64,000 nt of DNA from a virus. The stretch covers positions 93,581 to 157,580 of IMG/VR virus record IMGVR_UViG_3300011113_000123, one strand, 5' to 3'. Positions 8,058 to 40,222 of this stretch are shown piece by piece. The position numbers and the translations under genes are program-made. The notes beneath the pieces were generated by a model. That model saw only the letters and a list, made by a program, of their open reading frames with translations, did not search any database and was not told the DNA's origin. Position 1 is the stretch's first letter. Each line of letters opens with the position of its first letter.

Positions 8058-8139
8058 TCGCTTGATTTAACAGTACCACGGGCCCTTGACAACCATATCT
8101 GCCCGTGGTATCATTAAATCAAGTTCAATGAGGTTCGCT

Positions 8140-8781
8140 ATGATCAAGTTGTCCAAGGCTTCTAAGATGCCTGCCAAGTCCTGGTCGCTGCAAGCTCGCA
8201 AGACCTGCCCTGGCTCTATCGATCCTAACACGAAGCAGCCTGTTGCTGTTTGTGCTGGCTGCTACGCCGCTGAGGGTTTCTATATGATGCCCGACGCGAT
8301 CGCTGTTCGTGAGCACAATCGTGAGGATTGGAAGCGGGCTGAGTGGGTCGATGATATGGTCCACGAGCTGCGTCGGCAGAAGTTCTTTCGCTGGTTTGAT
8401 AGCGGTGACGTATATCATCCTGCGCTTGCGTTCAAGATCCTTCTCGTGATGCAGAAGACGCCTCACGTGAAGCATTGGCTGCCTACCAAGTCGTACAAGA
8501 TCCCGCGCATCCGCGCGATCCTTGAGCGTATGAAGTTGCTGCCTAACGTTTCTGTTCGCTACTCGTCCGACTCTATGACTGGCGAGTACGATGCTGATCA
8601 CGGCTCGACGGTTATCCCGTTCGCTGACTCAGTGACCAGCGCGAGCAAGGTGTGTGATGCGTATGAGCGTTCCGGTAAGTGTGGCGACTGTCGCGCATGC
8701 TGGAGCAAGGAAGTCAGCGTCGTAGCGTATCCCGCTCACGGTCGTCGTATGGGTCGTATCGTAAAGGAACTCGCAGCATGA
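8140..8781 (+). CDS. Phage gp88-like protein (radical-SAM-related)
   Basis: LSKASKMP..SWSL, CPGS...CAGCYA, FRWFDSGD, HWLPT, CGDCRACW. Confidence 0.7.
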   Translation: MIKLSKASKMPAKSWSLQARKTCPGSIDPNTKQPVAVCAGCYAAEGFYMMPDAIAVREHNREDWKRAEWVDDMVHELRRQKFFRWFDSGDVYHPALAFKILLVMQKTPHVKHWLPTKSYKIPRIRAILERMKLLPNVSVRYSSDSMTGEYDADHGSTVIPFADSVTSASKVCDAYERSGKCGDCRACWSKEVSVVAYPAHGRRMGRIVKELAA

Positions 8782-8981
8782 CTTGGGTCGCAAAGCCTTA
8801 TCTGAATCGTAACACGGGTATGAAAGAGTTCGAAGATGCTCCGTCAGCCGTGAAGTACCTTGAAGACTTCACTGGCTTCAAGATGGACTACGAAATTAAT
8901 CGCAAGACTAAGGAGAGGTCCTATGGCTGGGAGCTATGTGGAAAACTCTACAAAAAGATCGAGAAATCCGGTCGCGCGTGA
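8778..8981 (+). CDS. Hypothetical protein
   Basis: ATGA overlap, AAGGA RBS. Confidence 0.5.
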   Translation: MTWVAKPYLNRNTGMKEFEDAPSAVKYLEDFTGFKMDYEINRKTKERSYGWELCGKLYKKIEKSGRA

Positions 8982-9081
8982 GTTGCGCACGACTAAATAT
9001 CGCGCTCGTGTAGTACGTTCGCGAAAGCAGTATAAGCGAAAGGGTCGCGTAGCTCAGCAGGATAGAGCAACAGACTTCTAA
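8923..9081 (+). CDS. Small basic protein resembling ribosome rescue factor ArfA; 3' end overlaps tRNA-Arg
   Basis: AAGGAGAGG RBS; RNPVARELRTTKYRARVVRSRKQYKRKG. Confidence 0.55.
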   Translation: MAGSYVENSTKRSRNPVARELRTTKYRARVVRSRKQYKRKGRVAQQDRATDF

Positions 9082-9119
9082 TCTGTGGGTCGAAAGTTCG
9101 AATCTTTCCGCGATCACCA
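9043..9119 (+). tRNA. tRNA-Arg(TCT)
   Basis: ACAGA-CTTCTAA-TCTGT, CCA. Confidence 0.95.
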
Positions 9120-9138
9120 CTTGACAATGGAGACGAAA

Positions 9139-9543
9139 GTGACTAAGATAGTGATTAGTCGGTGCTATGGTGGCTTCGGCGTTTCTGAAGCTGGTATGCG
9201 TCGGTATGCTGAGATCAAAGGTCTGCCGTTTTATGTTTGGCAAGACCCTCAGTATCCGAAGGCTTCTACTGATATGTTCAAGCTGTACTTCACGGCTGAT
9301 CCGTCTGGTATGACAAAGATTAACAACGAGTTCTATCGTAAGTATAGCTTGTATGATGGAAACCTCGACCGCGCTGATCCTGTGCTTGTTCAAGTCGTCG
9401 AAGAGCTTGGTGAAAGGGCGAACGGTTGGGCTGCTAAACTTGTGATTGAAGAACTGCCTAAGGGGACTCTGTATCGTATCGAAGAGTATGATGGTTATGA
9501 GTCCATCGAAACCGCTGAAGATATTAACTGGAAGGTAGCATGA
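9139..9543 (+). CDS. Conserved phage hypothetical protein
   Basis: KIVISRCYGGFGVS...RADPVLVQVVEELG...YRIEEYDGYE; GTG start after GGAG. Confidence 0.7.
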   Translation: MTKIVISRCYGGFGVSEAGMRRYAEIKGLPFYVWQDPQYPKASTDMFKLYFTADPSGMTKINNEFYRKYSLYDGNLDRADPVLVQVVEELGERANGWAAKLVIEELPKGTLYRIEEYDGYESIETAEDINWKVA

Positions 9544-9779
9544 AACGAATTATGGCAGTCTCTGTTCTCGCGCTTGGTCTCGCTGGCTGCAACGCGACTG
9601 TGTATGATAGCGGATATCATCGTCGCCCTGTCGCGTCGGTGTATGTCCAGCCTGCTCCAGTCTACGTTGCACCGCGCCATGTGTATCACCCTTATGCGTA
9701 TCGACCCGCGCCTCCGCGTTGTTATACTGTTTGGGAACGTACACACTACGGAATGCGCGAGCGCAGAGTCTGCCACTAG
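9540..9779 (+). CDS. Small lipoprotein
   Basis: Signal peptide with LAGC lipobox; Pro/Tyr/Arg-rich mature part. Confidence 0.7.
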   Translation: MKRIMAVSVLALGLAGCNATVYDSGYHRRPVASVYVQPAPVYVAPRHVYHPYAYRPAPPRCYTVWERTHYGMRERRVCH

Positions 9780-12088: not shown

Positions 12089-12163
12089 GGTGCTTGAGCA
12101 GGACGGTAATGCGCGGGACTGCAAATCCTTGAGAACCCAGTTCGACTCTGGGAAGCACCTCCA
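12089..12163 (+). tRNA. tRNA-Cys(GCA)
   Basis: CT-GCA-AA, U73, CCA. Confidence 0.9.
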
Positions 12164-12181: not shown

Positions 12182-12313
12182 ATGAGTTGGATCGTGATTA
12201 TACCTGACGATGTTACTGGTGATATCGTTCAGGAGTTTCTATCTTACTACGACGCCGTTCTGTTTGCAGATTCTTTGCAGCATTATGGCGCGAGACTTCT
12301 GTACGATCTATGA
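12182..12313 (+). CDS. Small hypothetical protein (43 aa)
   Basis: MSWIVIIPDDVTG...; ATGA-coupled to the next ORF. Confidence 0.45.
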   Translation: MSWIVIIPDDVTGDIVQEFLSYYDAVLFADSLQHYGARLLYDL

Positions 12314-12516
12314 ACTTCGACGATCCTCACTTCAAAAGTGAGTTCTGGCGCTGGTTCGATAACATATCACCCGCAGAACGTAAGAAGTTCAAAGAGTACT
12401 CAGCTGACATGGCGGAGCTCTTTTTCTACAATAAGTATTTCAGCAAGGGGATCGACCCCTTCGAAGATCAGGTAGCTCAACTGAATAGAGCATCGCGCTA
12501 CGAACGCGAAGGTTGA
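12310..12516 (+). CDS. Hypothetical protein whose 3' end overlaps tRNA-Arg(ACG)
   Basis: MNFDDPHFKSEFWRWFD...; stop codon lies inside the tRNA. Confidence 0.55.
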   Translation: MNFDDPHFKSEFWRWFDNISPAERKKFKEYSADMAELFFYNKYFSKGIDPFEDQVAQLNRASRYEREG

Positions 12517-31625: not shown

Positions 31626-33769
31626 TGAGATACTCGTTGATCCGTGAACGCGATGGTGTTGGTGACTCTGGTCCTATGTGTCAGATTCTAGACTATGAAT
31701 CATGGAAACCGATTGAAGGCGAAACGTATCCGCGAGTAGGATGCGGTGTTCGTGTTGGTTCATACATCGCTCGCACATATAGTGGACAGGATTGGTGGCA
31801 GTGTACTCCTATCACAGAAATCCTTGAAGAGTCTGTAGATGATGAAGGCTATAGGACTGTGAGGTTCAAGACTCGTAACTCTGTCTATACCTGGAAGGAG
31901 TTTTGATATGACGCACTCCATGAAAGAGATGAACACTCGTTTGCTTTCTGATGGTATTAAGAAAGACGTTGACGATAACAGAATCGTATACTATAAGAAC
32001 GAAGTAGAGATCCTGCTGAAAGAGATTGCTCGTCTACGTGAAAAGTGCGATCGCCAGGCTCATATCCTTCGTAGGCTGACGCCCGAGAGTTATCCAGGAA
32101 CTATGTTTATCTCAGGTGTTCTGGGAAAGACTGATCAGAATCGTATGCCAGAGAAGCTGCTTGTAGTGCCTGGTTATGGTGTTGAGTTTGCATACGTCTA
32201 TGAGCGCACTGATAAAACGTTTGGCGCGGAGTGGTAATGTTTACGCCATACGAAAAAGAACACTACGACTTTCTTGACAGTCTGATGTTCGAACTGTATG
32301 ATGAACAGACTCGCAACCTGATCTATGACTTCTATGATAAGTATGATGTGAAAGCATATCTTCCTCGACAGCTGGATCGAAAGAACTGGCTTGAGTACAT
32401 CATCGAGTTTAGAGAACTGTCACTGTCTACCGATAGGTTTAAGATAGTTATCGAAGGTGATAGACATTCTATATGGAAGATTGACTGATGAATAACAACA
32501 TAGTGAATTTTCCTGATAACAAGATTGTTCGTGAGGTAACAGCAGTCTCATTTGAGAAGATACAGAAGTTCATTCTGTATCATAAGATTGCAGAAGAATG
32601 TGATGCAGAATTTGGTGACTCTGGAACAGTCGTTTTTCCTAATATAAATTGTTTCGAAAAGTTCTGTGAGAAACTATTGGAGTCAAAATGATTGACGAAC
32701 AACTGTATAAAGACACAGATGTCAGAGTGATCGATCAGCGTATTGGTATGGGTATCGGTGGTCTCAATACAGTTGTTCGTCTGTATCATAAGCCGACTGG
32801 TATTCTGATTGAGATGCCTAAACTACTTAGTAGTGATTACTACAATAAAATGCTGGCGTTTGAGATGCTGCAACATGCTCTAACAAAGTTGGCGGGTGAA
32901 TGAGATACTTTTCATACAACGAATATGTCGAAGACGCTAATGCTAACTCAGTTGTTACACTGTCAGAAGAAGACATTCGCAGAGATTACTGGACATTTTG
33001 GTACGGTAAGATGTGTGAAAAGTATGGCAAAGAGCATGTTGATGCTACTTATTGTTTTGAAGACTGCTTAGATGATTGGATTGTAGTCAATTGGGCATGG
33101 GAGGTGAGCGATGAGCGACACAGTTAGAATTGAATACATGATGCTCAGTGAGCAAGGAATCGTTATCATGAACTGGACCACAGCTCAGGGTGGCGTTGAA
33201 AACAACCCGCAGATCTACGTTCCCCGCGCATTGGATGTGAAACGCAGTCTCAGCCCTAATCCTAGCACTAGTCGCGTCCGTGTTATCAGCGAACAAACTA
33301 ACCGTATTGTGGATATGTTCCCATGAGTGAAGATAATCTCGATGATGCCCTTGAAGGGCTTCGACAAGCATTCGCAGACCATGACGCGGAACTTGCTAAG
33401 ATGGCCGACGAATGCGATCCAGAAGTCAAGCTCGCTGTGACTAAATGGGTTATGAAGCACATCGTCGAGCACGCGCGCGAGGGAGGCAGCTATCGCTATC
33501 TCATCTATGATCGACTGGGCTTTGGTCCAGAAGCATACGCTCCGCTTTGCTCTGATGGGCTGACTATCAGCAACGAGTTTGATCTCGATACTGTTCCGCA
33601 AGCTCGTGCGGCTTTGGCTGCTGGAGATCATGACGAGCTGAAGAAAATCTTGAGCTGCTGCGATGAGCCAGGATGCTACGACGAAATCAGCGCGGGATGG
33701 CCATCTCCTAACGGATATCGCAGCACCTGCAGCAAACACTATCAAGAAGGAAATCGCAAGGATGAATGA
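31625..33769 (+). other. Run of small coupled hypothetical ORFs (31625-31906, 31908-32237, 32237-32488, 32488-32691, 32688-32903, 32900-33127, 33111-33326, 33323-33769)
   Basis: Contiguous same-strand ORFs with stop/start overlaps; no recognisable motifs. Confidence 0.6.
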
Positions 33770-39517: not shown

Positions 39518-39585
39518 TGCTGAGGTCGTTGAGGCGTAAGAAATAAGCGGTTCGGACGCGGGGGCAGTACCCGCCGCCTCCACCA
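39518..39585 (+). ncRNA. ssrA: Permuted tmRNA, acceptor piece (T arm, 3' acceptor strand and CCA); 5' end approximate
   Basis: CGGAC-GCGGG-GGCAGTA-CCCGC-CGCCTCC-A-CCA. Confidence 0.9.
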
Positions 39586-39611
39586 TAAAGACTTCTCTAA
39601 CTATCCTATTT

Positions 39612-39619
39612 TATAAATA
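39612..39619 (+). promoter_or_regulatory. T4-type late promoter for the HNH gene
   Basis: TATAAATA about 20 nt before the ATG; AAGGAG RBS follows. Confidence 0.8.
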
Positions 39620-39638
39620 GGTTCGAAGGAGAAATAAA

Positions 39639-40073
39639 ATGAAACATTTACACCATATCATTCCTAAACATATGGGTGGGACTGATGAACCAGAAAATCT
39701 TATAGAACTGACTGTTGAAGAACATGCAGAAGTCCATAAGAAACTCTGGGAACAATATGGAAGATGGGAAGACAAATTAGCTTGGCAAGGTTTGGCTGGT
39801 TTGATTGGTAAAGAAGAACTAATCAAACAAATGCTAATTGAATCTGCTAAGAAAGGTAATGCTTCTAGACCTACAAATAAGGGAAAGAAGTATAACTGGA
39901 AAAAGTCTCCCAAACCAGTAGGAACTGGAGGAACTAGATGGTTTCATAATCCAGAAAATCCTACTGAAAAGAAATGTTTCAGAGCAGATCAGTCACCTCC
40001 TGATGGTTGGGTGAAAGGTCAAGGAAGAAAAGCAGTTAATCCTGGCTTAAACTTCCATAAGAAGTCTTTATGA
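39639..40073 (+). mobile_element. HNH homing endonuclease gene in the tmRNA intervening segment
   Basis: HLHHIIPKHMGGTDEPENLIELTVEEHAEVH; RWFHN...GWVKG C-terminal motif; visibly more AT-rich than flanks. Confidence 0.85.
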
Positions 40074-40074
40074 T

Positions 40075-40222
40075 GGGGGCGAAATTTTAGGATCGACGGG
40101 CGTAGTAAAGTTGCGAAGAGATCGAAAGCAAATCGTAAGTGCAGCGAATGACAATGCACCTCGTTTCGCTCTAGCAGCGTAACATGCGTTCGGGGAGTAC
40201 GTGGAAACAGAAACTCCCCACT
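40075..40222 (+). ncRNA. ssrA: Permuted tmRNA, coding piece; tag AANDNAPRFALAA (40141-40182); 3' end approximate
   Basis: GGGGGCG pairs with CGCCTCC including G3:U70; GGATCGAC; TAAGT-GCA resume context; tag ends LAA-stop. Confidence 0.9.

Follow-up and report, generated by a model that had tools for sequence, protein, structure and literature searches.

A GKG-less ArfA-family gene fused in frame to a tRNA-Arg gene in a clade of T4-like phages

A real ArfA-family gene lacking the GKG segment is fused to a functional tRNA gene in one clade of T4-like phages. The fusion was analysed in a 64,000-nt stretch (the window) of a 157.6-kb, 90%-complete T4-like phage genome with a large tRNA array, whose major capsid protein is ~69% identical to those of Pelagibacter phage Mosig and similar phages. 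Two ingredients of this arrangement are already known, namely phage ArfA (PMC12753301) and the generation of nonstop mRNA by overlap with t(m)RNA genes (PMC4131195). A literature search returned no report of the combination, an arfA–tRNA fusion.

The gene and its junction with tRNA-Arg(TCT)

The features of the locus are listed in Table 1. A 52-aa ORF with a strong ribosome-binding site that reads into tRNA-Arg(TCT) had been described in the sequence-only reading of this DNA, and it was confirmed by the ORF call, ARAGORN and Rfam. The junction was also as described: nucleotide 1 of the tRNA is the first base of codon 41 (8923 + 120 = 9043), and the stop codon lies within the tRNA. The 5' half of the tRNA gene therefore doubles as codons 41–52 plus the stop of the ArfA-like ORF, an overlap of 39 nt, and positions 8923–9119 hold a same-strand CDS/t(m)RNA overlap in the sense of Hudson et al. 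(2014), in which the upstream CDS terminates within a valid tRNA gene. The in-frame coincidence has a 1-in-3 probability by chance alone. The conserved core (N15–K40) runs precisely up to 9042/9043, where RNase P is predicted to cut. Selection acts on the structure of the tRNA, with 100% stem pairing and two-sided changes in seven pairs among 13 relatives. The TAA stop is not conserved, being TAC in one subgroup and frameshifted in another.

Table 1. Positions of the ArfA-like gene, the fused tRNA and associated features in the window
Feature	Position	Strand	Basis or remark
Sigma70-type promoter, 11/12 match, extended -10	8086..8114	+	Nearest predicted promoter upstream of tRNA-Arg
GP88-like ORF (PF17338)	8140..8781	+	First gene of predicted transcript
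67-aa hypothetical ORF, other frame	8778..8981	+	Overlaps first 59 nt of ArfA-like ORF
Shine-Dalgarno AAGGAGAGG	8910..8918	+	Upstream of ATG 8923
ArfA-like (DUF7230) ORF, 52-aa read-through form	8923..9081	+	ORF call, family profile match, dN/dS
Conserved core N15-K40 (E. coli ArfA N14-K42 minus G35-K36-G37)	8965..9042	+	BLASTP, hhalign, dN/dS
tRNA-Arg(TCT), encoded CCA	9043..9119	+	ARAGORN and Rfam (70 bits)
TAA stop of ArfA-like ORF	9079..9081	+	tRNA positions U36-A37-A38, anticodon loop
Next sigma70-type promoter	9121..9149	+	Directly after tRNA-Arg
Permuted (two-piece) tmRNA	39524..40182	+	Alphaproteobacterial-type tag ending in LAA

The ORF is short, and besides the tRNA it overlaps another ORF by 59 nt, which the sequence-only reading had missed. 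Its full-length score against PF23876 (26.4) is just below the cut-off of 27. It might on these grounds be a non-gene, a chance basic reading of the tRNA leader and of the tail of the upstream ORF. The selection analysis ruled out this interpretation, to which we attach next to no probability. In 32 distinct versions of the core, taken from viral and metagenome contigs, dN/dS across 27 codons was 0.15, with a value of 0.08 for the final 15, synonymous sites were near saturation (pS 0.65–0.72) and variation was found mostly at third codon positions. The start codon was kept in 29/29 lineages with the overlapping upstream ORF, its retention in that ORF's frame always being achieved with TAT and never with TAC, and the Shine-Dalgarno bases AAGG were invariant in the same lineages. 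The family to which the ORF belongs comprises 1322 clusters, which likewise speaks against a non-gene. ORF 8923–9081 is a real gene under selection. Three relatives have no upstream ORF; in them the start codon of the ArfA-like gene is only two residues ahead of the core Asn and is coupled to the GP88 stop. Since these lineages start the gene near the core Asn, residues 1–13 are a secondary, lineage-specific extension.

Relationship to DUF7230 and ArfA

The ORF matched DUF7230 (PF23876, E 8e-6; 27.6 bits when trimmed) and PHROG 20887, and 34/43 relatives matched PF23876 at E <0.1. A profile search with the ORF gave no match to the ArfA family PF03889, which was hit by only 2/43 relatives, weakly (best E 0.026). 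An alignment by eye with E. coli ArfA lacking the GKG segment had been proposed from the sequence. It was reproduced by BLASTP (10/31 identities, with a 3-residue gap at GKG) and by hhalign. The profile similarity to ArfA, named at that time as a check, was found by three routes. The alignment of the family with bacterial ArfA by hhalign had a probability of 77–79% (E 2e-5), with a score of 25.2 vs a maximum of 14.3 in 300 column shuffles. When the family profile was searched against the whole PDB, ArfA chains were the top hit and 6/8 of all hits, all weak (E 0.22). Finally, bridging proteins were detected. The viral protein L309 combines a DUF7230 N-half with a KGKGSY motif; it matches the family profile at E 1.8e-11 and, with 42.9 bits, clears the PF03889 cut-off of 25.5. 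A protein of phage J2-1 exceeds the cut-offs of both PF03889 and PF23876 over the same stretch. Another intermediate, gp30 of pelagiphage HTVC027P, has a DUF7230-type N-half plus a KKGRGSF motif and was reported as an ArfA highly expressed in infection (PMC12753301). Together the intermediates form a continuous series between DUF7230 and ArfA. The comparisons make it very likely that ORF 8923–9081 is an ArfA homologue, though not an E. coli-type member.

The 1322 clusters of DUF7230 (at 50% identity) were seen here in phages, and the family profile had no match in 251 sampled proteobacterial genomes. DUF7230 was not mentioned in any paper in a literature search. Citromicrobium phage RXM reportedly has an ArfA. 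ArfA-like ORFs are unannotated in the GenBank records of the cultured phages Cr30, pf16 and RsoM2USA (L015, L016, L020); that of Cr30 passes the PF03889 cut-off and that of RsoM2USA is just below it. A search of the ESM Atlas returned hypothetical and DUF7230 clusters only. Matches to uL14 in single-sequence NCBIfam and PDB searches were rejected as chance, and no ArfA hit was obtained there.

In the alignment with E. coli ArfA (YhdL; PF03889; PDB 5H5U, 5MGP, 5MDV), N15 corresponds to N14, Y26 to F25, Y37 to Y39, R39 to R41 and K40 to K42. The homologous core has the RF2-contacting elements (helix 15–24, the F25-type aromatic and beta-strand 27–30), with Y26 and the following R-x-R-V aligned to F25–V29. 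It also has the YxR motif and the basic C-terminal channel segment (Y37, R39, K40), with six basic residues in 32–40. Both proteins are small and very basic. Unlike E. coli ArfA, the phage ORF has no KGKGS loop, replaced by a 3-residue gap in BLASTP and hhalign; the loop is likewise absent from the J2-1 and L295 proteins, which pass PF03889. The KH motif (K44–H45) is absent from the cut form and is Gly-Arg-Val in the read-through form; it was present in 43/140 family representatives, and many true ArfAs are without it. The small residue A18 and the N-terminal minidomain are also missing, R19 being aligned to A18 and the N-terminal 13 residues being variable. Bacterial PF03889 members, too, occur without the long N-terminus and A18. 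Judged by homology, a rescue function of the peptide is fairly probable, with the uncertainty that comes from A18, the N-terminal minidomain, GKG and KH all being missing. An AlphaFold2 model of the 39-residue core had low confidence (pLDDT 69, pTM 0.23), with a helix at the place matching the ArfA helix. Foldseek gave no match with this model, a result that is uninformative for a peptide folding on the ribosome, and a complex prediction with Caulobacter RF2 (score 0.01) gave no answer either way.

Conservation of the fusion and stop codons inside phage tRNA genes

The same in-frame junction was found in 18/19 clade contigs when the search used the tRNA 5' end alone, and it was kept in all 32 distinct cores. 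Searches by junction pattern select for the fusion, and the tRNA-only type is the unbiased one. The distances between neighbouring genes and tRNAs vary while the junction of the ArfA-like gene is invariant. After the first five tRNA-encoded residues the read-through tail is free, stop included: its length is 12 residues in this phage and 26 in relatives with C at tRNA position 38, and a D-loop shortened by one base elsewhere shifts the frame and likewise gives a 26-residue tail. In one relative (L009/L121) a gene of 190 aa was inserted at the junction. There the ArfA-like gene has been retained and has an ordinary stop, while it is the newcomer that terminates within the tRNA. The inserted ORF (L009:3146-3718) overlaps the ArfA-like stop and ends 10 nt inside tRNA-Arg; it is mobile-endonuclease-like by eye, with no Pfam support.

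The overlap in homologues, another check proposed with the sequence-only reading, thus held within the clade and not beyond it. DUF7230 members outside the clade belong to the same family and mostly have an ordinary stop and no tRNA, the fusion being found only in this T4-like clade. A survey of viral loci, 80 of them DUF7230-type and 66 KGKGS-type, gave no second independent ArfA–tRNA fusion; the ArfA-like ORF of RsoM2USA stops about 10 nt short of tRNA-Pro. The tRNA-encoded Gly-Arg is not an adaptation of tRNA-Arg, because an identical tRNA 5' end occurs in unfused phage tRNAs. The persistence of the fusion is weak evidence for regulation, because the first bases of the tRNA are fixed and a stop could be placed ahead of them only by inserting sequence or giving up the conserved K40.

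Stop codons inside tRNA genes are not peculiar to the ArfA-like gene. At 4/8 ORF–tRNA junctions in this genome, all or part of the stop lies in the tRNA. Among 32 other tRNA-abutting ORF families of the clade, 14 had at least one member whose stop is partly (or, in 11 families, wholly) in the tRNA, and seven of the 14 use the universal U8-A9-G10 as a UAG stop. The base rate of such overlaps in the clade is about 35–45% of tRNA-abutting gene families, a count that rests on uncurated ORF calls. For bacterial mRNAs, overlap with t(m)RNA genes has been put at about 1 in 15000 (PMC4131195). Since overlaps are so common in the clade by comparison, they characterise the phage group as a whole, not the ArfA-like gene in particular.

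Further examples were noted in the same genomes. Stops at U8-A9-G10 occur in at least seven unrelated ORF families (loci L102-L129, L237-L264), including a glutaredoxin-like ORF in this genome, with a tRNA-Met at G000 74421. An unannotated 68-aa ORF (12310–12516) reads 16 codons into tRNA-Arg(ACG); its homologues (L265, L268, L270-L273) read into tRNA-Arg(ACG), independently into tRNA-Ala(TGC), or have ordinary stops. In a lipoprotein-like ORF (9540–9779) the last base of the stop is nucleotide 1 of tRNA-Lys, with a gap of -1 to +30 in relatives. A tRNA at 12089–12160, probably Cys by synteny, was found by Rfam and missed by ARAGORN.

Transcription, predicted nonstop product and function

The interval from 8114 to 9043 showed no promoter-like site, which makes it most likely that the tRNA comes from the transcript encoding the ArfA-like ORF. 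In most relatives the promoter lies at about -957 from the tRNA and in subgroups at -312 to -326, and none was found closer than about -200. No terminator was found within or after the ArfA-like ORF, and no special mRNA fold upstream of tRNA-Arg (z -0.64). RNase P cleaves at the tRNA 5' end, here 9042/9043. This specificity and the promoter layout lead us to infer a cut in vivo, which would leave 40 codons without a stop; such a nonstop fragment is likely to be formed.

The phage has its own tmRNA, as the sequence-only reading had stated, and it is permuted; a tmRNA was also present in 4/5 fused-clade contigs tested. The type of its tag suggests an alphaproteobacterial host. Neither SmpB nor a complete release factor turned up in the genome, which is 90% complete. 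The intervening segment of the tmRNA contains an HNH/homing-endonuclease-like ORF (39639–40070; PHROG 655, E 1e-14). A 71-aa ORF (32688–32903) has a weak RF-1 domain match (E 0.003), with GGL in place of GGQ.

Truncated at N47, E. coli ArfA retains activity; truncated at M40, it has none (PMC5378476, PMC8012679). The RNase P product would end between these points, at the K42 equivalent. It would have no residues after YxRK, vs 8–16 in terminator-type nonstop designs, and would be shorter than any natural member seen among the best 150 representatives, in which the shortest natural tails were 2–4 residues. In the read-through form, the tRNA-encoded Gly-Arg matches ArfA G43–K44, so the uncut message would give a more complete protein. 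The 40-mer may still be active, because the family-invariant residues end at YxR, one residue short of the predicted cut, many ArfAs have no KH, and it has six basic channel residues vs seven in E. coli 31–47.

A nonstop design exists in the DUF7230/ArfA family and is a minority trait in phages. A strong 3' hairpin (z below -2) was present in 85% of bacterial arfA genes vs 8% of the tested phage family members, and internal terminators were found in 3/62 GKG-less members outside the clade and in 7/52 KGKGS-type viral genes. Among the genes with an internal terminator are the DUF7230 genes of Sinorhizobium phages phiM12 (L013:1585-1621) and phiN3 (L014), where the intrinsic terminator lies in the CDS, which ends Lys-Ala-Ala. 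A RelA/SpoT gene follows two genes downstream of it, so that these culturable phages show a classic arfA-like layout.

Our best reading, which we hold with about as much confidence as doubt, is that the ORF encodes a rescue peptide with a tolerated, locked tRNA fusion. The ORF would be a GKG-less, phage-type member of the ArfA superfamily (DUF7230), and its peptide would most likely bind the empty mRNA channel of stalled host ribosomes and recruit the host release factor. An ancestor of the clade would have lost the gene's own tail, stop and spacer, fusing the last core residue to nucleotide 1 of tRNA-Arg through the same compaction that puts many other stops of these phages inside tRNAs. The fusion would be tolerated because the core is intact and the tRNA happens to supply a stop and the G43–K44 equivalents, and it would stay locked because moving the stop ahead of the tRNA would take an insertion or cost a conserved residue. 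Uncut transcripts would give the 52-aa protein, which we infer to be the more active form. Those cut by RNase P would become nonstop mRNA, with the 40-aa product tagged by tmRNA. The maturation of the tRNA would then mainly limit expression, and tmRNA feedback would be a by-product.

Some findings count against a merely tolerated fusion and are more in line with the two-tier circuit proposed in the sequence-only reading. In such a circuit, which we consider possible but doubtful, the fusion was selected because RNase P makes the message nonstop, and the 40-mer is active and under selected tmRNA feedback. It would be destroyed by tagging while phage or host tmRNA has spare capacity and, again doubtfully, would accumulate when trans-translation is overloaded. 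The junction is invariant though synonymous sites are near saturation and neighbouring gaps vary, and the tail and stop are free to change, as expected if the cut form matters. The cut falls directly after the last conserved core residue, the invariant family residues stop at YxR, and the 40-mer keeps its six basic channel residues. With no promoter detected from 8114 up to the tRNA, every tRNA produced would leave the fragment behind, and tmRNA is carried by this phage and by most of the clade contigs tested. The 3' hairpin of most bacterial arfA genes and the internal terminators of some ArfA/DUF7230 phage genes point to nonstop control as a family habit. ArfA homology, the clade-wide overlap, the phage tmRNA and the promoter layout stood up in the follow-up. 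On the other side, overlaps have a high base rate in the clade, family members elsewhere have ordinary stops, and L009/L121 lost the fusion and kept the gene. The predicted product stops directly at YxRK; for E. coli ArfA, 40 residues are too few and 47 are sufficient. Internal terminators are rare among GKG-less members outside the clade. The full-length form has no hydrophobic destabilising C-terminus: its tail is polar, tRNA-dictated and variable in length and resembles neither a hydrophobic degron nor one ending in AA, which would let the full-length form escape control. If the circuit exists, RNase P maturation of a fused tRNA could, tentatively, be a third nonstop route after RNase III and intrinsic terminators. 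Its active product might then be a minimal 26-residue core ending at K42, without GKG, KH or N-terminal minidomain, which we think rather unlikely. With similar reservations, the peptide could work beside the phage tmRNA in clearing stop-less fragments from the tRNA array.

It is improbable, though less far-fetched than a non-gene, that the peptide derives from ArfA and no longer activates release factor. It would instead occupy the mRNA channel or decoding site and in this way compete with SmpB/tmRNA, park ribosomes or bias translation during infection, with tRNA processing limiting a potentially inhibitory product. Consistent with this, the N-terminal minidomain, GKG and KH are missing and Arg stands at the A18 position; in E. 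coli, the ArfA variant A18T binds and cannot activate RF2. The family is also very large, was found in phages and had no match in the proteobacterial genomes sampled. Against it, conservation extends to the aromatic that contacts RF2 (Y26, equivalent to F25) and to the beta-strand pattern after it, bacterial PF03889 members do without A18 and the long N-terminus too, and continuous intermediates join both families. The tolerated, locked fusion of a rescue peptide remains our preferred reading.

Known rescue systems resemble the phage arrangement in part. Like E. coli ArfA, the phage peptide is predicted to be made from a nonstop mRNA through an endonucleolytic cut in the 3' coding region. The cut would be made by RNase P at a tRNA and not by RNase III or a terminator, at K42 and not near residue 55, and the tRNA dictates a read-through tail that lacks the hydrophobic, destabilising character. 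BrfA of Bacillus subtilis, a rescue peptide that depends on RF2, is likewise translated from nonstop mRNA, with trans-translation controlling its level. It is unrelated in sequence save for the KH motif, absent from the phage ORF, and BrfA uses an intrinsic terminator. Hudson, Lau and Williams (2014) described how overlap with t(m)RNA genes gives nonstop mRNAs, the smpB-ssrA pair of Carsonella ruddii among them, and proposed feedback on the rescue gene (PMC4131195). There, too, a CDS runs into a t(m)RNA gene, whose maturation is expected to strip the message of its stop. In that case the gene codes for SmpB and such overlaps are rare, whereas here an ArfA-family gene is involved and overlaps are common in the phage group.

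Stop codons inside tRNA genes are common in this phage group and should not be read as regulatory without a test. The tRNA array may yield many nonstop fragments, a possible reason to carry both a tmRNA and an ArfA-like gene. If the fusion is regulatory, the maturation of a tRNA would be tied to the supply of a rescue factor, which until now has been proposed for smpB of Carsonella only. If DUF7230 peptides are active, ArfA-type rescue would reach into a very large, uncharacterised family, and the minimal ArfA would become much smaller.
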